A stretch of DNA of 38,544 nucleotides from Actinomycetota bacterium (GTDB taxonomy: Bacteria > Actinomycetota > Aquicultoria > Subteraquimicrobiales > Subteraquimicrobiaceae). The DNA is taken from positions 1-38,544 of the forward strand of contig JBFMAG010000134.1 of assembly GCA_040755895.1 (NCBI GenBank), read 5' to 3'. Both the position numbers and the translations under genes were made by a program. Each line of letters starts with the position of its first letter. The stretch's first letter is position 1. A model generated the notes under the pieces. That model did no database searches. It saw only the letters and a list, made by a program, of their open reading frames with translations, and was not told the DNA's origin. This document shows positions 27,219-36,607 of the stretch, in pieces.

Positions 27219-27908
27219 CTAATCATAGGGGAGATCTATCCCTATCCTTTGAAAATCCTTTCTAATAAGTTCAAAGGCTTCGGATTTATTCTTCTTCATC
27301 AAGCTCACCGCATAATCACAATCGGGGTTTGTCTCAGAGATTTCAACTAGCTTGTCTCCCACTTGGAACTTGAGCCCCCTCCTCACCTCCAGCCAAACCT
27401 TCGCCTGAGCTTGGTAGCATTGGTATTCCTGAGATACGGAATCATCCTCGAAGAATGAATCCAGTTGGACATGTTTGCCCTCATGAGCAATAATAGCTGC
27501 TAAAACCGTCGTTGGTGCCTCCCTATAGCTATTGCTGATAACTATGGTGCCAGTCGTAACGAAGGGTATGGCTGATCTATACTCCGCCGCGGCAAAAGCT
27601 ATCTTAGGTTTACCGAAAATTATCCTTATCTTCCTTTTTTGTATGATCTCTGCAATCTCCCTTCCCGTCCTACTTCCCTTCAAAGCATTGAAACTTTCCC
27701 TTAATTTTCCATCTTTGATGGTTTCTCTAACCCAGCGATAATCAAGGTCGGTAAGGAAAGAAGTGGAGTGGGAAACCGGATTTAAATTGGAGGAGATACC
27801 GATTTGAACCGAGGGTTTAGTGGCGATGCTTATGTGAATGGTTTTAAACCAGGGTGATTGAGTAATCAGTAAAACAATGACAACGAAGAGTGCTAATTTC
27901 TTTAACAT
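27219..27908 (-). CDS. Secreted hypothetical protein with HExxH motif (putative metallopeptidase-like)
   Basis: 229-aa ORF with a signal/anchor (MLKKLALFVVIVLLITQSPW) and AAIIAHEGKHVQLD (HExxH). The GGAGGAGG SD is embedded in a hairpin. Confidence 0.6.
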   Translation of the reverse strand: MLKKLALFVVIVLLITQSPWFKTIHISIATKPSVQIGISSNLNPVSHSTSFLTDLDYRWVRETIKDGKLRESFNALKGSRTGREIAEIIQKRKIRIIFGKPKIAFAAAEYRSAIPFVTTGTIVISNSYREAPTTVLAAIIAHEGKHVQLDSFFEDDSVSQEYQCYQAQAKVWLEVRRGLKFQVGDKLVEISETNPDCDYAVSLMKKNKSEAFELIRKDFQRIGIDLPYD

Positions 27909-28299: not shown

Positions 28300-31200
28300 T
28301 TAGTAGGCATTGGTATACGAGATCCAAACTCCTATATCGTGGCAACCCACACCGGCACATGCGCTGTCCGTCACTATCCTTCCCCCACCGATGTAATGAT
28401 CATATCCGCGGTTGATCAAATGGGCCTGCTTCTTACCATGGCTTCCATGGCAATCCATACACGCTTGATGACCCGAAATTCTATGTCCCTGCCAGCGGCT
28501 CTTGGAGAGAAGGGGGTCGCCCACGGAATAGGACTCCTGAGCATGACATTGGAAGCAGAGACTTGTATCGATAGTTGTGTATGGTGCCCTCAAAATATGC
28601 TCATTCGCTGAACCTGCGAGACACTGGGCACCGGTTTGATTATTAGTGCCGTGACAATCGGTACAATAAACCAAACTGGCATCCGTCCAGGGAGCAACGA
28701 AAGCCAGGAGGTCAATGCCGGTATTCTTCCCCACACCTTCCACTGGATGATAGGATGGATTGGTCATATCAAATTCAAAGGCTTTATCCTTCTGCTCCGG
28801 GGGTAGGGTCGTATACGTGGAATGACACTTATAACATAGTTCGTACTGATTCACGATGGGATTTACCGGTACACCGTTGGTGTCTACCCCCCCAACGCCT
28901 TTAATCTTCCCGCTCGCCGCAGGAGCACTCGCCCCATCGGGGGTTGCCTTATGTGGATTATGACAGTCCACACATTCTGAATGGCGCTTGGAACTCACGG
29001 GATCATAAGCGAGATTGGAGAAATTCTCCGTATCCTGATGGATGCCCGTCACCGTGTCCACGGGATGCTTATATGCTTTGGTCAAAAGGGTATCGATATC
29101 GGGAGCTCCAATTGTTGGTCCCGTGGTGGGATTATGGCAAGCCAAACAGAGCCTTTCCTCCCCATAAACAGTCGAATTATCATAATTAAACGCATTCAAC
29201 CTTGCATTATTTGAGCCATGGGGATGATGGCAAGTTTTGCACGTAATGCCGGCAAGGGCATTGGTGGCCATACCCGCCGAAGTAAAGGCGGATTTATTCC
29301 ATCCGGGGAAGAAGGGCGAAAGCTCCAAAGATATCGTGGGATGAGAGATATTATGTGGAACCACGGTGGTCGAGTTGGTCACCGCCAGGGGTGGCGCACC
29401 ATTGTGGCACTTCAAACAGAAATCGATCATGCCTCCAGTCCAAAGATTCTTCGTATTATCGGGATCGGATATCATCGCACCAGCTACTGCCCGGGCGACA
29501 TGAGGTCCATGGCAACTTGTGCACTCGACTTTGGCACCAGTCTCAGAGATTATGTCATGGTGGGAAGGCAAACTGAATTGAGCCTGTATATCCCAATTGT
29601 TGAGGGTATTGGGGAGATTCGCGGAATTGTGGCAGGTGTAACAAAGTTCCTCCTCCAGCCCTCTGTTCAATCGGGGGAAGTCTGAGCCATGGTTTCGATG
29701 ACAATTAATGCACTTTATGAGCGTTCCCGATGGAGGATAACCTGTATTTACATCATGTGCAGCAATTCCCGTGAAGTTGGTGATATGATCTCCACCTAAG
29801 GCATAACCCAATCCCAAGTCCGAGGCACCATGGCAGGCTCCGCAGAAGTCATTTCCCTGGTAAATCTTATTGCCCGCGGGATCGGTCACTCGCAACAATC
29901 TTGGATAATAATTTCCAAGCGCGTCCTTATTTCCATGTGTATTGTGGCAATGCGAACATTCTAAAATGTGGCGAGGATCTTTAATGAATAAGAGATCCTT
30001 AATGGGATACCGCGATTCGCGCGGACTATCATAAGCATCTCTAATATTGGTGACATCTCCCATCCCATCATGGCAAGTAAGACAGAGCTCCGCCTCGATT
30101 TCACGAACCAAGTGATTATCGCCCACCGCCGTATGATTTCGATGACAGCAGGCACACATATCGGTATCTACGGTGTAATTCCTATGTGGAGTGGAGATCA
30201 CACCGGGATTATTGACGACCACGGTTACAGCATCGATGGTCACATTGTCCGCTTTATCCTTCGCTATTAACCTTATGGTATACGTTCCATTGGAAATTCC
30301 CAGCGTATATCCAGATTCGAGGGCATTGTCCAAGACGGGAGTGGTATGCACGGCTCCCAATAGCGTCCAGGTAGTGGGTGCGGAGGTAGCACCATATTCC
30401 AGCTTGTATTGACCAAAATTTTCATCTGTAGCTGTCCCATAAATGGTTATGATTCCACTAACCTCGCTATCGGTAACCGGTTGGCTGATGGAAGCCTGAG
30501 GAGGAGTGTTGTCCACAGTTACGCTTACCCCGGGTCCAGGGCTCTCAACATTGCCATAATTATCGATTGCCCTGGACCTGATGTTGTAAACACCGTCGGC
30601 GGGCAATGTCCAGCTAAAGCTCCAGATATCGGTGCCAGCTGCATCTTGCCAGGTATTTCCGCCATCCGTGGAAATCTGCACCTTTGCAATCCCCGAGCCG
30701 CCCAGATTATCCTGAGCCGTGCCGGTTATGTTATATGCGATGCCCTTAAGGTGTGAACCATCGGCTGGATCGGTGATTGTAGAGGTTGGAGCGATGCCAT
30801 CTGAAGGTAAGGAGTAGTCCACCACCAGTTTTGGTCTTAAAGTCGGATCGTCTGCGTAATCCGAGGAGTAGAATACCCCACCTTCGATGATACCAGTCTC
30901 ACCAGTGAGTAGAACTATTCCCTTATTGATCTCTCTGCCGGCGTGCCAATCGCTCACCAGCGTGGTGATATCCCAGCTCTTCCAAACATCCGCTGCATCC
31001 ATGAGCTGACGATCCAAAATCTCTTCAAAGCTCGGTTGGGTGTTCCAGGTAACTCCGTCCGCGGGAACGGCACCCGTGCCCTCCTTCCACTCGGAAGCCA
31101 CCTTGCGGACGTAGACATTCCCACCAAAGGCACTTTTAACATAGAGTTGCAAGCTCGCGGAGTTGATTATGCTTTTGGGTGGAATGGAGCTTAAGTCGAA

Positions 31201-32268
31201 TTGCAAAAAGCTTCTCGTCGTGGTCACTGTTCCAATCCAGGCATTTAACGTCGCGTCTGCGCCAAAATTGACATCGGGTTGAGTGCTATCAACATGGGCA
31301 TCCTTCCCCACGATGGGATCGGGCTGTATCACGACGGTGGGATCGATTATCACCGGGAATGTAGCGGTCTTCAACCAAGCGGGATCGACGGAGAGGGTCA
31401 GGAAGCTCTTGCCCTTTATCTTCTTCAAGGTTATGTTCACATTACTGATTCTCTCCTCAAAATCCTTGGCGAAGGGTGAAACGGTCCTACAATTGCCAAA
31501 GTCTAGCGACCCGCCCTTCAAAGGAGCAATGGACTTATTGGAGACGACTTCAAAGACAAAAGAATGAGGAGCCGAGCTCTCTTTAAGGATTATCTCCTCC
31601 TTAACATAAGTCGCTCCAACCTTGTACCGCAGATCGGTGGATTTAAATGCATTCTTATAGGTTATTCGGTTTTTGTAGACCTTCCCATGGACACGTTTTG
31701 CACCTTTGGGGATGAATTTGACTTCCGTTTTGTCGACCTTTAGCGTGAGACTTGGTGTAGTGGAACCGAAGGCAGCCCGAAATGGAAGATCAGTAACCTT
31801 CAAATTTTTAATGCTCGGGTTAAGCTCATGCCATCCGCCAACATCATCCCTGTAGTGAACTGGTGTGGCATAAATCACCGCGGTCATGGTGCCCTCGAGA
31901 TTTTTAAAGACCTTAGCGTATTGTGAGCGCAGTTGAACGAGTTCCCCAAAACTGTGTTCGGAAATCGAAGCCGCAGGTAATGCACACTTTATACACAATC
32001 CAAACATGAGGGAGCTTGTGGCAAAGGAGACAATTATGGCTAAATCCAGGACAATGGTGATAAAATCCCTTCTCTTGATCTTCAAAATCCATTTGCGCAT
32101 TCCCCGACGTATTCTTTCGAGACGCGCCAAGACCAACTCCGTGATCGTCAAATGTTGGTGGAGATTTCCAAGAGTGAGCGAGAAAGCGTTCGAAACAAAG
32201 CTGCATTTGACGGCATTGAAGGGATTATACATGCCTCTTCCCATTATTTTGTCCATTCTTAACTCCAT
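28300..32268 (-). CDS. Large extracytoplasmic DNRLRE-domain / Ig-like / multihaem c-type cytochrome fusion protein
   Basis: 1322-aa maximal ORF. The likely real start is the ATG at 32100 (MRKWILKIKRRDF plus a TM/signal anchor). The DNRLRE-like segment reads RSFLQFDLSSIPPKSIINSASLQLYV...WKEGTGA...GVTWNTQP. Two Ig-like repeats follow. The C-terminal ~650 aa carry 15 CxxCH motifs plus one CxxxxCH, many as CxxCHxxH. Confidence 0.8.
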   Translation of the reverse strand: MELRMDKIMGRGMYNPFNAVKCSFVSNAFSLTLGNLHQHLTITELVLARLERIRRGMRKWILKIKRRDFITIVLDLAIIVSFATSSLMFGLCIKCALPAASISEHSFGELVQLRSQYAKVFKNLEGTMTAVIYATPVHYRDDVGGWHELNPSIKNLKVTDLPFRAAFGSTTPSLTLKVDKTEVKFIPKGAKRVHGKVYKNRITYKNAFKSTDLRYKVGATYVKEEIILKESSAPHSFVFEVVSNKSIAPLKGGSLDFGNCRTVSPFAKDFEERISNVNITLKKIKGKSFLTLSVDPAWLKTATFPVIIDPTVVIQPDPIVGKDAHVDSTQPDVNFGADATLNAWIGTVTTTRSFLQFDLSSIPPKSIINSASLQLYVKSAFGGNVYVRKVASEWKEGTGAVPADGVTWNTQPSFEEILDRQLMDAADVWKSWDITTLVSDWHAGREINKGIVLLTGETGIIEGGVFYSSDYADDPTLRPKLVVDYSLPSDGIAPTSTITDPADGSHLKGIAYNITGTAQDNLGGSGIAKVQISTDGGNTWQDAAGTDIWSFSWTLPADGVYNIRSRAIDNYGNVESPGPGVSVTVDNTPPQASISQPVTDSEVSGIITIYGTATDENFGQYKLEYGATSAPTTWTLLGAVHTTPVLDNALESGYTLGISNGTYTIRLIAKDKADNVTIDAVTVVVNNPGVISTPHRNYTVDTDMCACCHRNHTAVGDNHLVREIEAELCLTCHDGMGDVTNIRDAYDSPRESRYPIKDLLFIKDPRHILECSHCHNTHGNKDALGNYYPRLLRVTDPAGNKIYQGNDFCGACHGASDLGLGYALGGDHITNFTGIAAHDVNTGYPPSGTLIKCINCHRNHGSDFPRLNRGLEEELCYTCHNSANLPNTLNNWDIQAQFSLPSHHDIISETGAKVECTSCHGPHVARAVAGAMISDPDNTKNLWTGGMIDFCLKCHNGAPPLAVTNSTTVVPHNISHPTISLELSPFFPGWNKSAFTSAGMATNALAGITCKTCHHPHGSNNARLNAFNYDNSTVYGEERLCLACHNPTTGPTIGAPDIDTLLTKAYKHPVDTVTGIHQDTENFSNLAYDPVSSKRHSECVDCHNPHKATPDGASAPAASGKIKGVGGVDTNGVPVNPIVNQYELCYKCHSTYTTLPPEQKDKAFEFDMTNPSYHPVEGVGKNTGIDLLAFVAPWTDASLVYCTDCHGTNNQTGAQCLAGSANEHILRAPYTTIDTSLCFQCHAQESYSVGDPLLSKSRWQGHRISGHQACMDCHGSHGKKQAHLINRGYDHYIGGGRIVTDSACAGVGCHDIGVWISYTNAY

Positions 32269-32472: not shown

Positions 32473-33342
32473 CTAAAGAATGTACTTCGTGACGGCTACG
32501 ATATCTTCATAAAGCTCCTTGGGCTTGCCCGTGGCAGACATCATGTGAATTTCATAAACTATAACACCATCATACCAACTGAGTGTGGCGTAGGTTGTGG
32601 CATCCGTTCCAAAGTAAGCTGAATGACCGTGAATCGTGGCAGTTCTTGCATCCGAGGGAAACGCCTTTTTGCTCACCGAATCGGTGAATGCCTTAGCACT
32701 TTCTAAGCTTCCCCTGTTGTACACCGATATCAGCAACGATTCCACACGAGGATGATTTTTGGGTATATAACCACAGCAAGCATAATTATCACCTCTTGCT
32801 ATATTCCCCGTGGCAAATCCGGGGATATCCTTCGGCAGAAGGGCAGCGAGATCTACAGCGGGTGGAGTGGATACACCCGGGGTAGGTGGTATGCCTGGAC
32901 CTGGTGATGGACCTGGAGTGGTAGTACCAGGGCTCGGTGGTGCACCTGGAGTAGTGCCAGGGCTGGGAGGAGCACCAGAAACCGCCGCTTCGATCTGCTG
33001 CAACTGCGTTTTGACGCTCTCAAATTTTGGATCGAGCTTTGCCACCTTCTCCAAGAGCTTCTTCGCCTGAGATAGCTCTTTTCTTGCCAGCTGTTTCTGG
33101 GCTTTAGCATAAAGTTCCTCACATTTTTTATGTCTCTCACAAATGGATTTGACCGTTTTAACCTTAAATCTATTTGCCATCCACCTCGGTACCCTAATAG
33201 TCCTCGTGCTATCCTCAATCACGTGCCCATAGCGACAAAGGACCTTCTTCCCCACCTTCACGGGAGTTGTACCCGCATAAGCTACAACACCAAGAACCAA
33301 GATAATAATGACTGCAATGACTATCTTCCTTCTCAAACTCAT
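32473..33342 (-). CDS. Membrane-anchored hypothetical protein, paralog B
   Basis: 289-aa ORF with an N-terminal TM helix. It has a conserved Cys-containing module (VLCRYGHVIEDSTRTIRVPRW...ICERHKKCEELY), a coiled coil and a Pro-rich linker (APPSPGTTPG repeats). A C-terminal globular domain follows. It aligns along its length with 34823-35716 and has an ATGA overlap with the upstream gene. Confidence 0.7.
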   Translation of the reverse strand: MSLRRKIVIAVIIILVLGVVAYAGTTPVKVGKKVLCRYGHVIEDSTRTIRVPRWMANRFKVKTVKSICERHKKCEELYAKAQKQLARKELSQAKKLLEKVAKLDPKFESVKTQLQQIEAAVSGAPPSPGTTPGAPPSPGTTTPGPSPGPGIPPTPGVSTPPAVDLAALLPKDIPGFATGNIARGDNYACCGYIPKNHPRVESLLISVYNRGSLESAKAFTDSVSKKAFPSDARTATIHGHSAYFGTDATTYATLSWYDGVIVYEIHMMSATGKPKELYEDIVAVTKYIL

Positions 33343-34793
33343 GACCCTTGCCCCTTAATTTTTTTCTCGACAAACTTGGCATCAATGGCGGGATAGCCAG
33401 CCAGTTTCCCTTCCTCGATCAATCTCCCCGAATTAGATAAAATCCCCAAGGCATCTCCATTCAAAAGACTAACCATCTCCTTGACGCCATCTTCAGAAAA
33501 GGGATATAACTCATTGAGCCCCTTGCTTTTCATATTTTCCAATTCTTGACTCCGATAAAAATCCGATTTGAGGAAACTGGTGAGCAAATCGGTTGCTTGT
33601 TTATGATCGATAGGGGTGGAAATATCGAGATAGCATAAACTGAGATCCAAAGATATCTCCAGCCGCCCGCTCAGATATTCCTCTCCTATTTGTTCAATAA
33701 GATAAGGAAGACAGGCGAAAGTTAATAGACTCTTGCCCGCGGATAGCCACTTTAATTCGGCAACTGCCCCGAAAAACATCGCTCTTTCTGAATCCTCAAG
33801 AGCAGTCCATCCTTCGAGTTGATCGATGAAGATCACCACTTTCTCATAAAAAGCCAGAATGAGTTGCAACAGACCGGGGAGCGTCTCCCGATAGTCCACT
33901 ATCGATTGGAGCCTGGAATGTCCCTCGCTAAATCCCTCTTTGACGGCTAAGGTAATAGCTTCTTTAATTTGAGAGCCAAATTGAGTTTTTTCCAAGGCAC
34001 CCTCGATGAATTTAACCAGATTTTCCCTCATCTCCCTACGTTTCTTCTCCTCTTCAGTCTCCTCCTTAACCTCCTCCTCTTGCTCTTCCGCCTCGGGTTT
34101 TACCGCTTCCCCCTCTTCAGCCTCTTTCGCTTCTTCTACCCCTTCACGCTCTTCCCGTTTTCCCTCCTCAGCTTCCTCAACCTCCTCCGCCTCCTCTCCC
34201 TCTTCAACCTCCTCTTTCTTCTCAGCTTCTTTCTCCTCTTCCTCGATAAATAGGATCTGATCTAACGCTTGTCCCTCCGTCTCATTCATATCCTTGAGGA
34301 GCTTTGTGATATCCACATCCGGCAAAACCTCAGGGGCTTTGCCACTAGCCTGGAGTTTCTTTAGCTCTTCGTAAATGAAGGCATATACGCATCTCCGAAA
34401 ATGCATCTCGATGAACCGATCCATGATTATCTTAAAGATACCCTGAAGTGGATTTTCATAAATCAAGGGTAAGGGGATATAAACTGGGAATAGGCGTGGG
34501 GTTTTAGATTCAAAAATGGTGCGGAACAGACCACTCATGACCGAGATGTTATACTCCCCCGAAGCTTTTGCATCCTTTAAGATCCAAACGTTAGGAGCCT
34601 TTGGCTCTTTGACAAGAGTTTTTATCAAAGAAAGTACCTTGTTGGTCTCTTTTTTACATATCTCCTTCGTAAATAGGCTCCTTTTATCCTCGCCTTCTTC
34701 GATAACTTCAGGTGGGAAAGGATTCTTCCCCAAGAAATATTGGGGATACTCTACAGCTTCGACGGCTTCCCTTCTCTCAAAGAATTCCTCCAT
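33339..34793 (-). CDS. AAA/Orc-like protein with degenerate P-loop and large acidic insertion
   Basis: 484-aa ORF. The N-terminus (YFLGKNPF) and a Walker-B-like segment (VVIFIDQLEGW) fit an AAA/STAND-like fold. A GxxxxGK[ST] motif would be expected around WILKDAKASGEYNISV, but none is present. There is a ~90-aa Glu/Lys-rich insert. Confidence 0.5.
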   Translation of the reverse strand: MEEFFERREAVEAVEYPQYFLGKNPFPPEVIEEGEDKRSLFTKEICKKETNKVLSLIKTLVKEPKAPNVWILKDAKASGEYNISVMSGLFRTIFESKTPRLFPVYIPLPLIYENPLQGIFKIIMDRFIEMHFRRCVYAFIYEELKKLQASGKAPEVLPDVDITKLLKDMNETEGQALDQILFIEEEEKEAEKKEEVEEGEEAEEVEEAEEGKREEREGVEEAKEAEEGEAVKPEAEEQEEEVKEETEEEKKRREMRENLVKFIEGALEKTQFGSQIKEAITLAVKEGFSEGHSRLQSIVDYRETLPGLLQLILAFYEKVVIFIDQLEGWTALEDSERAMFFGAVAELKWLSAGKSLLTFACLPYLIEQIGEEYLSGRLEISLDLSLCYLDISTPIDHKQATDLLTSFLKSDFYRSQELENMKSKGLNELYPFSEDGVKEMVSLLNGDALGILSNSGRLIEEGKLAGYPAIDAKFVEKKIKGQGS

Positions 34794-34822
34794 TTTAGAT
34801 CAAGCCTCCACGCCTGGATTTA

Positions 34823-35716
34823 CTAGATTTTTTTGGATATGGCGACTATATCACCATAAACTTTCTTAGGATGCGTTGAGGAATATATTTCCACCGCAAA
34901 GATTAGACCGTCCCGACGCCAGGTAAGAACCGCGAATTGACGACCATCCGTGCCAAAGTAACAAGAACGACCATCCACGGTGACATCGCGGCTATCTGCG
35001 GGGTAGTACCATTTTATCTCCTTTTCCATTAGGGCTTCAGCGTCCTCCGGTCTCCCACCCTGCCGTACCATTATGGTGAGAAATTTCACCCTCGACTCGG
35101 TTTTTTGGGGCTTGAAAACCCTGTTCGCGGAGAGCACGTCCTCATGCTCAGAATAAAGGGTATACCCCTCAAGAGCCTTTGGTATGAGGGAAAGGAGTGG
35201 ACCGGTAAAAGCCTCACCCTCAGAGGGTGGCGGAGCGCCTGGGGGACTTGGTGCTGGCTCCGCACCGGGTTCAGTTCCAGGTTCAGTGCCTGGTCCAGTT
35301 CCTGGAGCCGGAGCTTCGCCTTCCTCCACAGCAATGGCTCTCTCTACCTTCTCCAATTTCTTCTGAGTATCCTTAAACTTTAGATCCAGACTCCGCACCT
35401 GGTCAAGCAATCTTCGACCCGCCTCAAGATCGCCCTTGCCTAAAGCCTCCAAGGCTTGCTTGTAAAGCTTCTCGCAGACTTTGTGCTTATCGCAAATCGC
35501 CTTAGCAATTTTTACTTTGTACCTTCCCGCCTTCCACCTGGGAACTTTGATGAGCTTGGTATTATCCTTGATTACATGTCCGTATCTGCATAAAAGCTTT
35601 GAACCGATTCTCACCTTGACCGGTTGGAAGGCAAAAGCCAAACCGGAGATTAAACCAGCTATAATCGCCAAAACAATTATGTATTTAACCCTACGTGTTA
35701 ATTTAATCCTTATCAT
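34823..35716 (-). CDS. Membrane-anchored hypothetical protein, paralog A
   Basis: About 297 aa from the ATG at 35716 (MIRIKLTRRVKYIIVLAIIAGL...); the track ORF starts 14 codons earlier without an SD. It has the same architecture as 32473-33342 (LLCRYGHVIKDNTKLIKVPRW...ICDKHKVCEKLY, Pro/Gly/Glu-rich linker, related C-terminal domain). Confidence 0.7.
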   Translation of the reverse strand: MIRIKLTRRVKYIIVLAIIAGLISGLAFAFQPVKVRIGSKLLCRYGHVIKDNTKLIKVPRWKAGRYKVKIAKAICDKHKVCEKLYKQALEALGKGDLEAGRRLLDQVRSLDLKFKDTQKKLEKVERAIAVEEGEAPAPGTGPGTEPGTEPGAEPAPSPPGAPPPSEGEAFTGPLLSLIPKALEGYTLYSEHEDVLSANRVFKPQKTESRVKFLTIMVRQGGRPEDAEALMEKEIKWYYPADSRDVTVDGRSCYFGTDGRQFAVLTWRRDGLIFAVEIYSSTHPKKVYGDIVAISKKI

Positions 35717-35818
35717 CCCGATCTCACTTTGAGCTACTAAGCTGTAAGGATTAAGCATTAAGCTTTTTGATTAAACCATTCTTGCGAGCCGACACATCGG
35801 GCGTGACAACCCAATGAA

Positions 35819-35904
35819 GTCATTGCGAGGCGAAGCCGTGACAATCCCAAGAAAGACCACTGTAACATGAGGATTGCTTCGGGATTTATGTCCCTCGCAA
35901 TGAC
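35819..35904. repeat. REP/MITE-like palindromic element (GTCATTGCGAGG family)
   Basis: The outer inverted repeat is GTCATTGCGAGG (35819-35830) and CCTCGCAATGAC (35893-35904). The inner part contains GGATTGCTTCGGG. It belongs to the same family as 37981-38096. Confidence 0.7.
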
Positions 35905-36067: not shown

Positions 36068-36607
36068 TTAAAGCTTGTGGCTTGGGGCTTCAGACTTGGA
36101 GCTTGTGCCCAGAGCAATATGCAGGGTCGAAATAAGAATGGAGAAAGCGACGAAGACGAGAGTGAAAATGGAGCCCAAAACTTGAGGAATATTTGCTATT
36201 TTATATTCCACCAAATAAACATAGGGTGAACCAATGGCGTGCTGAATTTCTGCAGGAATCGAAGGCAGCCATGAAAAAATCGACGTCCTTCCCGCAAGCC
36301 ACAGGCACAAAATGAGAAAGCCGCTGAAGACAGACCAGCTTAAGCACTCCAAGTGAGTAAACCCTTTTTGGAATCTCAAAGCAGTGACGGTATTCACCAC
36401 TCCCGCCAGGAGAAGCAGATAGCCTCCAACCGTTGCATAGGCGTAAGTCCAAAACCACCTTTGATAAAGTGCTCCGCTATCCAGATATCCCCTTATGAAG
36501 CTCGACTTCACAGTGAAGAACAAAGCAATTACAGCGAAAATCAGGCTCCCTATGGCAAAGAATATGAGACATGCACGCACCAGTCTTTCCATACTAAATC
36601 CCCACAT
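36068..36607 (-). CDS. Hypothetical polytopic membrane protein
   Basis: 179-aa ORF (alternative start MERLVRA at 36592) with about 5 hydrophobic helices. I recognise no family. Confidence 0.55.
   Translation of the reverse strand: MWGFSMERLVRACLIFFAIGSLIFAVIALFFTVKSSFIRGYLDSGALYQRWFWTYAYATVGGYLLLLAGVVNTVTALRFQKGFTHLECLSWSVFSGFLILCLWLAGRTSIFSWLPSIPAEIQHAIGSPYVYLVEYKIANIPQVLGSIFTLVFVAFSILISTLHIALGTSSKSEAPSHKL

Follow-up and report, generated by a model that had tools for sequence, protein, structure and literature searches.

A recurrent four-gene module with a degenerate AAA+ protein adjoins giant secreted proteins and may form an envelope scaffold

What might an AAA+-like protein without a P-loop do between two membrane-anchored paralogs, just ahead of a gene for a giant multihaem cytochrome? 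The question is raised by contig JBFMAG010000134.1 of an Actinomycetota bacterium, a stretch of 38,544 nucleotides (nt) that was analysed as a whole and is called the window here. Three genes on its minus strand, encoding the paralog B, the middle protein mid and the paralog A, had been singled out in a reading of the letters alone (the original prediction); a fourth conserved gene, Mem, was not among them. The components, from 5' to 3' on the coding strand, are:

36068..36607, minus strand: Mem, 179 amino acids (aa), polytopic with about four transmembrane (TM) segments, the fourth conserved module component
34823..35716, minus strand: B, the upstream-type paralog, 297 aa from an internal ATG, predicted N-in bitopic protein
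33339..34793, minus strand: mid, 484 aa, predicted cytoplasmic pseudo-ATPase, a degenerate ORC/AAA_16/BrxD-type AAA+ protein
32473..33342, minus strand: A, the downstream-type paralog, 289 aa, predicted N-in bitopic protein
28300..32268, minus strand: giant secreted protein and candidate client, 1322 aa, with a signal or anchor, DNRLRE/CBM96 and Big_7 domains and a 15-CxxCH multihaem module

The best explanation, which we hold tentatively, is that the locus encodes a nucleotide-independent, envelope-spanning scaffold of four proteins that docks or assembles giant surface proteins. It is suggested by the synteny of mid with anchored partners and a giant secreted neighbour, the conservation of Mem and the retention of both paralogs, as well as by the predicted position of the ectodomains outside the membrane and the lack of an output domain in mid.

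The layout of the three genes is as originally described: B and mid are separated by a 29-nt spacer with a GGAGG about 13 nt ahead of the mid start codon, mid and A overlap by an ATGA, and the cytochrome gene follows 204 nt past A on the same strand. The longest open reading frame (ORF) of B spans 34823..35758 (311 aa), and orthologues favour the shorter 297-aa form. The nearest relatives, at 88–92% protein identity, are a JGI metagenome contig and the metagenome-assembled genome (MAG) UBA2594, 'Candidatus Subteraquimicrobium carltonvillense' (Actinomycetota, class Aquicultoria).

Recurrence of the module beside giant secreted proteins

The module is found beside giant secreted proteins in about 14 lineages, from the low-GC Aquicultoria to unrelated high-GC lineages. 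In all 13 P-loop-less lineages with readable context, mid has one or more anchored PsbP-like partners no further than two genes away (hmmsearch), and a giant secreted protein with a signal peptide or anchor comes after the module. Two partners are found in the window clade, L001, L004, L006, L010, L023 and L024 (the last matched at E=5.6e-19), and one is visible in L019, where the anchored partner is a lipoprotein. The order paralog–mid–paralog–giant protein is shared by the window clade, L001, L004, L006 and L023; L010 shows the order Mem–mid–paralog–paralog–giant protein, and mid, the downstream paralog and the giant protein are seen at the contig ends of L007 and L013. Distant loci (L014, L015/16 and L017/18) carry mid homologues that match the A1 profile at E=1e-13 to 1e-17, with partners recognized by hhalign at 1e-11 to 1e-13. 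The exception is P0030 in L021, the one Walker-A-bearing relative of mid with context examined, which has no anchored partner. The trio is not peculiar to this genome, which would have counted against the original prediction, and occurs together in many other lineages. Ratios of nonsynonymous to synonymous substitution rates (dN/dS) against the closest relative indicate purifying selection on all four genes (0.14 for Mem, 0.12 for B, 0.20 for mid and 0.15 for A). Taken together with the recurrence, these values argue that the arrangement of the locus is not due to chance.

Mem matches no Pfam or NCBIfam model. Its homologues lie near the module in L004 (39% identity, E=4e-31) and immediately upstream of mid in L010 (E=2e-19) and L024 (E=9e-17). 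Directly upstream of the trio in L023 (5003-6535), a 510-aa protein with about 14 TM segments combines an N-terminal EamA/DMT transporter with a C-terminal Mem homologue (E=4e-34), and its EamA part is homologous to the products of L004 1609-2559, near the module, and L010 231-1193, directly upstream. This fusion and the separate EamA genes speak for a serious alternative to the scaffold: Mem, sometimes fused to EamA/DMT, would move a small or lipid-linked substrate, and A, B and mid would organize the modification of wall glycopolymers or of the giant protein by surface glycosylation, with no docking involved. The GT4 glycosyltransferase and sortase genes upstream of the module in the window clade, a Wzy_C/TPR protein encoded between mid and the CBM96 protein in L019 and the CWB2 wall-binding domains of L017 clients are consistent with such a role. 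However, the 38.5-kb window contains no EamA gene, the glycosyltransferases beside the module are not conserved outside the window clade, and Pfam and NCBIfam recognize no catalytic domain in any of the four proteins; we consider this alternative improbable. The GT4 and sortase genes of the window fit a wall-bearing monoderm host and, with the Wzy_C protein of L019, place the module in an envelope context, which we count in favour of the scaffold.

The giant neighbours themselves differ between lineages. A multihaem cytochrome is the neighbour in 5 of the 13 P-loop-less lineages, so that the co-occurrence with DNRLRE-multihaem genes, which the original prediction suggested testing, holds for a giant secreted protein in general and not for this particular class. 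The neighbour is a multihaem DNRLRE fusion in the window clade and an 11–13-haem FG-GAP/PKD cytochrome in L015 and L023, and a smaller cytochrome adjoins mid in L014 and L017. NiFe hydrogenase genes flank the module in L015–L018, as does a Mo-oxidoreductase gene in L023; in five lineages the module sits inside clusters that resemble those for extracellular electron transfer, with multihaem cytochromes, NiFe hydrogenase or Mo-oxidoreductase. Elsewhere the neighbours combine a propeller with Y_Y_Y/Big_13/DUF5719 domains, carry CARDB/CWB2, or are fn3, PKD, CBM96 or Big_5 proteins. A propeller-like N-terminal region is common to the clients of L001, L004, L006, L007, L010, L013 and L024. Orthology among the downstream clients as a whole was considered and rejected, as only Ig-type domains are common to them; the module is thus the constant element and the client the variable one. 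No LPXTG motif is present in the window cytochrome or in any complete client protein. The N-terminal ~320 residues and the CBM96/DNRLRE part of the window cytochrome find their homologue in L019 (6073-7896), in a haem-free CBM96 lipoprotein of 607 aa encoded two genes downstream of mid, suggesting that the multihaem module was a later addition to a surface protein already associated with the module.

Further observations concern the surroundings of the related loci. In L015/L016 (2977-12379) and L017/L018 (3016-13803), at 64–67% GC, genes for the small and large subunits of a NiFe hydrogenase and for a 6-haem cytochrome lie to one side of the mid homologue, and the giant secreted protein encoded on its other side is either an FG-GAP cytochrome with 13 haems or a CARDB/CWB2 protein of 1454 aa; these gene sets look like an extracellular hydrogenase–cytochrome cluster. 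A neighbouring gene in the high-GC lineages falls into a cluster with a MAG that bears the label Sulfuricella, perhaps a binning artefact. Just upstream of the trio in L001 (207-1073, minus strand), L004 (4989-7140, minus strand) and L006 (477-1355, minus strand), and not in the window clade, lie one or two divergent radical SAM genes, one of them with a B12-binding domain.

The AAA+-derived middle protein

No module protein reaches threshold in PADLOC, Pfam, NCBIfam or PHROGs. For mid, PDB sequences also give no match and no AAA-type family appears at E<=0.1 in Pfam or NCBIfam; searches of the PDB by sequence or profile, using mid, A1, A3, A5 and P0114, bring up low-complexity or P-loop noise only. 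A word-index search finds two relatives of mid, whereas an exhaustive profile search finds 108 representative clusters, 33 of them below 1e-30. Motif counts were taken over 91 full-length members of this family, and the main features of mid are:

34716..34724, minus strand: NPF motif, residues 24-26; N24, P25 and F26 are invariant in alignments A1 and A5 and common to most representatives
34542..34586, minus strand: degenerate P-loop, residues 70-84, WILKDAKASGEYNIS, aligned column for column with the P-loops of relatives
34008..34244, minus strand: acidic low-complexity insert, residues 184-262, with 40 D/E and 15 K/R in 79 residues and a predicted local distance difference test score (pLDDT) below 50
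33807..33839, minus strand: Walker-B-like strand, residues 319-329, VVIFIDQLEGW
33447..33458, minus strand: lid motif GDAL, residues 446-449, with G in 55/91 and D in 45/91

Almost all representatives of the family start with Y..(Y)GL..NPF. The AAA/Orc-like landmarks named in the original prediction, an NPF N terminus and an hhhhDQLE strand, are indeed present in mid, as KNPFP at residues 23-27 and VVIFIDQLE at residues 319-327, and so is the reported lack of GxxxxGK[ST]: mid has no Walker A motif, neither in this form nor as [AG]xxxxGK[ST]. The place of the missing motif can be located precisely, as the P-loops of relatives (WVAGERGVGKTS, WLEGDIGVGKSS and VGPYGSGKTH) fall exactly on mid WILKDAKASGEYN in alignment A5, and KDAKASGE of mid is aligned to GERGVGKT of a Walker-A-bearing full-length relative. 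Across the family the Walker A motif GxxxxGK[ST] is kept in 7 members and missing in 84 of the 91, the first glycine position being occupied by K or R in 59 and by G in 7. The Walker B aspartate is conserved in 81/91, as is a tryptophan five residues past it (Trp 329 in mid) in 76/91; the position of the catalytic glutamate holds Q, R or G in 68/91 and Glu in 5/91, and is Q in mid. The C-terminal lid carries the motif YPF..GV......GD..., in which GDAL presumably corresponds to the sensor-2 motif 'GDAR' of ORC/Cdc6, minus its arginine. With about 108 clusters, the mid family presents a clear case of a pseudoenzyme family.

The relatives that keep Walker A, among them P0030, P0114 and P0077, all three retrieved with the mid profile, connect mid to known ATPases. 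P0030 aligns with mid over its full length (BLASTP, E=8e-40) and scores 40.8 bits on Pfam AAA_16, against a cut-off of 32.6 bits. P0114 and P0077 exceed the Pfam thresholds for BrxC_BrxD (49 and 34 bits, respectively; cut-off 22.2) and for AAA_22, the family of ExeA (discussed below), and P0114 also that for ORC-CDC6-like; NCBIfam detects in the Walker-A-bearing relatives only weak similarities to ORC1/Cdc6, BrxD and Sll1717. Like BrxD/BrxC_BrxD (PF10923), AAA_16 (PF13191) and ORC1/Cdc6, to which it is homologous, mid has its strands in the same order, with a helical insertion ahead of Walker B and a lid at the C terminus. Unlike these ATPases, it falls below every threshold, lacks Walker A, the Walker B glutamate, apparently the sensor-2 arginine, and a winged-helix DNA-binding domain, and is associated with membrane and surface proteins rather than with nucleic-acid systems. 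Homology to the Walker-A-bearing relatives and loss of their motifs thus identify mid as a degenerate ORC/BrxD-type AAA+ protein. With an isoelectric point (pI) of 4.64, no signal peptide and no convincing TM segment (its sole hydrophobic window is the Walker-B strand), mid is predicted to be a cytoplasmic AAA+-derived pseudo-ATPase that cannot use ATP, in agreement with the original assignment. Loss of the catalytic motifs across the family excludes an energizing role and fits that of a scaffold, and the family seems to derive from ORC/BrxD-type ATPases that were taken over for a role in the envelope.

The acidic insert corresponds to the poly-Glu/Lys insert noticed originally at about 33969-34260. 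It is found at the same site in all close orthologues, where it precedes the helix leading into Walker B, and is missing from P0030. Two plus-strand ORFs of 84 and 94 aa that run across it (33969-34260) are a Leu/Ser/Phe-rich mirror of the GAA/GAG-rich coding strand and not genes.

Kinship with BrxD-like ATPases also brings up anti-phage defence or surface exclusion, in which the membrane proteins would act as surface sensors or effectors. Besides the BrxC_BrxD scores of P0114 and P0077, this would agree with the position of P0030 in a tight operon with a PD-(D/E)xK-like protein and without membrane partners, with toxin–antitoxin pairs near some loci and with a fold match of A in BFVD to a phage 'host cell surface-exposed lipoprotein' (Foldseek, E=7e-4). 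Yet PADLOC matches no component, and no match to the module occurs in 50,697 phage or 72,556 plasmid records, which also leaves an origin from a phage or mobile element unsupported. Beside the module there is no conserved nuclease, methylase, PglZ or other effector, mid has lost its catalytic motifs, and the conserved neighbours are respiratory or surface proteins (NiFe hydrogenase, Mo-oxidoreductase and multihaem cytochromes) and not defence islands. Against the BREX BrxD model (NF033438, an equivalog requiring at least 350 bits) mid gives no match and its relatives only 13–34 bits, and the BREX partner genes pglZ, pglX and brxC are absent from the window ORFs scanned. Defence is, by our estimate, a highly improbable function of the module.

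The surroundings of P0030, the nearest relative of mid that keeps Walker A, are of another kind. It closes a tight three-gene operon (L021, 6138-9305) in which none of the three proteins has a TM segment, its partners being a 204-aa protein with a PD-(D/E)xK-like YEIDV...ECK motif, according to our own reading of the sequence, and a 411-aa cytoplasmic protein. This operon may be a nucleic-acid-directed or defence system and represent the ancestral context of the mid family.

The anchored paralogs A and B

A and B align over their whole length (38% identity over 288 residues, E=5e-62) and share the motifs LCRYGHVI.D.T..I.VPRW...K.IC..HK.CE.LY and YFGTD...A.L.W. Both are basic (pI 9.61 for A and 9.54 for B) and have a single N-terminal TM segment, placed by hydropathy at residues 7-25 of A and 12-30 of B. 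An AlphaFold2 (AF2) model of A, built with 12 homologues, has a pLDDT of 82 and divides the protein into five parts:

33268..33333, minus strand: TM anchor, residues 4-25; AF2 helix 4-23, hydropathy 7-25
33118..33267, minus strand: basic β-module with the Cys/His motif (C36, H40, C68 and H71), residues 26-75; four AF2 strands (25-66), pI 10.7
32977..33138, minus strand: three-helix TPR-like unit, residues 69-122; AF2 helices 69-86, 90-103 and 110-122
32863..32976, minus strand: Pro-rich flexible linker, residues 123-160; pLDDT below 50 at 124-158
32476..32862, minus strand: C-terminal α/β domain, residues 161-289, predicted PsbP/Mog1-like sandwich; pLDDT 89-97, Foldseek

The TM anchor, Cys module, Pro-rich linker and related C-terminal domain that had been ascribed to the paralogs are all present. 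In the Cys/His module, C36, Y38, G39, D44, T46, P52, C68, H71 and E75 of A are invariant (12 sequences), H40 being replaced by E in some B-type orthologues, a pattern that could form either a Cys2-His-(His/Glu) metal site or a disulfide. Where a coiled coil had been proposed, AF2 predicts instead the compact three-helix unit, whose matches to TPR_2, BamD and FIVAR are weak and do not reach the cut-offs. At NCBI an A orthologue is named 'FIVAR domain-containing protein'; this name was set aside, as the helical match behind it scores 16 bits where 29 are required. Among orthologues the linker differs in length and is rich in G, S, T and P.

Results of a Foldseek search of the PDB weakly suggest that the C-terminal domain of A and B adopts a PsbP/Mog1-type fold. 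The domain of A matches PsbP/CyanoP (E=2.4e-3 to 7e-3, probability 0.69-0.99) and Dip2269 (3v7b, probability 1.0, template modelling score (TM-score) TMt 0.43), as well as TiME, Tsi3 and EagT6, all matches lying at E=2e-3 to 5e-2 with TMt up to 0.45; the query was the whole multi-domain model of A, hence the modest E-values and TM-scores. The LolA/DUF4367-like outer domains envisaged earlier find no such counterpart, with no Pfam match and no LolA-type entry in the top 50 PDB fold matches, of which PsbP/CyanoP, Dip2269, TiME and Tsi3 are the best. These best fold matches of the domain (PsbP/CyanoP, TiME (Rv2700), Dip2269 and DUF1795/Tsi3) are mostly extracytoplasmic accessory or assembly proteins; unlike them, A carries the domain on a TM anchor, a Cys/His module, helices and a Pro-rich stalk.

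Distant homologues have K/R-rich N-flanks and acidic C-flanks around the TM segment, and one has a lipobox; both the N-in charge bias and the lipobox place the ectodomains outside the membrane. By homology, the topology of A and B is thus predicted to be N-in with the C-terminal part outside. A cytoplasmic Cys/His module, considered for its high positive charge, was ruled out by the N-in topology or lipobox of the distant homologues. A maximum-likelihood tree separates an upstream (B) type clade (97/94) from a downstream (A) type group (92/96) across lineages, so that the duplication is old and both copies have been kept. A retained ancient pair of paralogs is the pattern expected of a heterodimer.

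Only 6 residues precede the TM segment in A and about 11–25 in B and the orthologues. Membrane anti-sigma factors possess a cytoplasmic N-terminal domain of about 60–90 aa before the TM segment (for example ZAS, HxxxCxxC), which A and B lack; the anti-sigma-like character suggested in the original prediction has to be given up, as the tails leave no room for such a domain and the Cys/His motif lies past the TM segment, outside. Among the genes called next to the module at each locus, none was seen that encodes an extracytoplasmic function (ECF) sigma factor; of the window's small ORFs, a part was scanned.

These features bear on transmembrane signalling, in which the ectodomains would sense a redox, metal or surface-protein state and pass it to mid as a STAND/ORC-like switch that regulates the neighbouring gene. 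The invariant Cys and His residues might make up a redox or metal sensor, PknH-type sensor ectodomains are among the weak fold matches of A, and relatives of mid match AAA_16, nSTAND and ORC-type models, families rich in switches. However, mid ends at its AAA+ lid and has no output domain (helix-turn-helix, kinase or GGDEF), and it cannot cycle nucleotide, whereas STAND switches need nucleotide exchange. The tails of 6–25 residues are too short for transmission on their own, and at the loci examined the module has no conserved sigma factor, kinase or response regulator next to it. Where the original prediction named signalling or assembly, assembly therefore stays as the best if tentative reading, and signalling becomes a less likely, indeed improbable, rival, given the lack of an output domain and of nucleotide cycling.

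A candidate scaffold and its architectural parallels

We infer that the four proteins form a physical complex with a role in docking or assembly. A and B would pair with each other, and mid would serve as a nucleotide-independent organizer that binds, from the cytoplasmic side, both Mem and the short conserved A and B tails. The paralogs would project the Cys/His β-module, the three-helix unit, the Pro-rich linker and the PsbP-like domain outward through the wall, so that the PsbP-like heads could dock, stabilize or position the giant Sec-exported protein of the adjacent gene, in the window a 15-haem cytochrome without a wall-sorting signal. PsbP-type folds are typical of extracytoplasmic docking and assembly factors. 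The PDB fold matches of A, which include photosystem II and NDH subunits and the mycobacterial envelope protein TiME, are counted in favour of docking or assembly for this reason.

Several points weigh against the scaffold. The PsbP-like matches are weak (best E 2e-3, TM-scores 0.29-0.45), and neither A nor B matches Pfam PsbP or PsbP_2 at E<=0.1. The AF2 model of mid, made from a 5-sequence alignment, has a pLDDT of 51.5 and is usable only for its alternation of strands and helices, and a Foldseek search with it retrieves nothing meaningful (best E=3.5). Given the short tails of A and B (6 residues in A), a direct contact with mid is doubtful, and the link may hinge wholly on Mem. No domain is common to all clients that a single docking head could readily recognize. 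As to co-expression, the sequence is present in groundwater and subsurface DNA metagenomes only.

Known systems resemble the module in architecture only. One is the PilM–PilN–PilO alignment subcomplex of type IV pili, and GspL/GspM (PMC5805733). Like PilMNO, the module would consist of a cytoplasmic nucleotide-fold protein and two similar bitopic proteins, each with a short N-terminal tail, a helical segment and a C-terminal α/β domain, encoded by adjacent genes; PilMNO is a trans-envelope scaffold and not a motor. Unlike in PilMNO, where PilM is actin-like and the C-terminal domains of PilN and PilO are ferredoxin-like, mid is AAA+-derived and the C-terminal domain of A is PsbP-like. No sequence similarity to PilMNO was found, and no gene for a pilin, a PilB/T ATPase or a platform protein lies in the window.

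The other is ExeA/ExeB (GspA/GspB) of Aeromonas type II secretion, which are secretin-assembly factors (PMC4098917, PMC9239104): an AAA ATPase and a basic 25-kDa bitopic protein that help the secretin through the peptidoglycan (PMC4098917). As in ExeAB, a cytoplasmic AAA-type domain would be combined with a basic N-in bitopic partner of about 25–30 kDa with a large extracytoplasmic domain, and A (pI 9.6) and B (pI 9.5), each with a single N-terminal TM segment, have the features of such a partner. Unlike ExeA, which needs its ATPase domain, mid has no P-loop, and it has neither a TM segment of its own nor a peptidoglycan-binding domain (no PG_binding Pfam match). The module further differs from ExeAB by its two paralogous partners, its 4-TM protein, its PsbP-like C-terminal domain and its monoderm host. 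Neither the window nor the related loci contain a secretin or Gsp gene, and hhalign finds no similarity between mid and E. coli GspA (probability 0.1%). A specific homology with ExeA is not claimed: ExeA-type ATPases begin with 'Y..FFGL..PF', which is like the 'Y..YGL..NPF' of the mid family, and GspA of E. coli K-12 has no such motif and no profile similarity.

We regard the module as new, as no describing paper or family model was found. The original statement that it corresponds to no described system stands, since Pfam, NCBIfam, PHROGs, PADLOC and PDB sequences assign none of the components to a described family; searches of the literature on DNRLRE proteins with cytochromes or on Gram-positive multihaem clusters returned nothing on these families. 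Little is understood of how Gram-positive-type cells bring giant proteins, large multihaem cytochromes among them, past a thick wall, and we know of no dedicated machinery that positions them there; the module is a concrete candidate for it. A bolder version of the scaffold, which we find rather unlikely as a whole, would make it an envelope apparatus that lets monoderms display giant redox proteins beyond the peptidoglycan. Heterodimeric, PsbP-headed, wall-spanning stalks, organized by a catalysis-stripped AAA+ protein exapted from BrxD/ORC-like ATPases, would hold multihaem cytochromes, in the window the 15-haem DNRLRE fusion and elsewhere the 11–13-haem FG-GAP cytochromes next to NiFe hydrogenase or Mo-oxidoreductase, in place for extracellular electron transfer, and the module would then be the functional counterpart of the porin–cytochrome scaffolds of diderms. 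Even if the docking model is wrong, the four protein families, which have no Pfam or NCBIfam model, merit family definitions, and their synteny provides testable partners.

Two non-coding elements accompany the genes in the window. A palindromic element at 35819-35904 (minus strand), with arms TCATTGCGAGG...CCTCGCAATGA, lies in the 350-nt spacer between Mem and B and may split Mem off the B–mid–A transcript. Just downstream of the cytochrome gene, a cyclic di-GMP riboswitch aptamer (c-di-GMP-I-GGC, RF03167; 27998-28072, minus strand; 75.1 bits against a gathering score of 59, E=3e-16) precedes a gene for a 229-aa protein (27219-27908). In the close relative L002, an inserted RHH/PIN toxin–antitoxin pair separates the cytochrome gene from the orthologue of this 229-aa gene.

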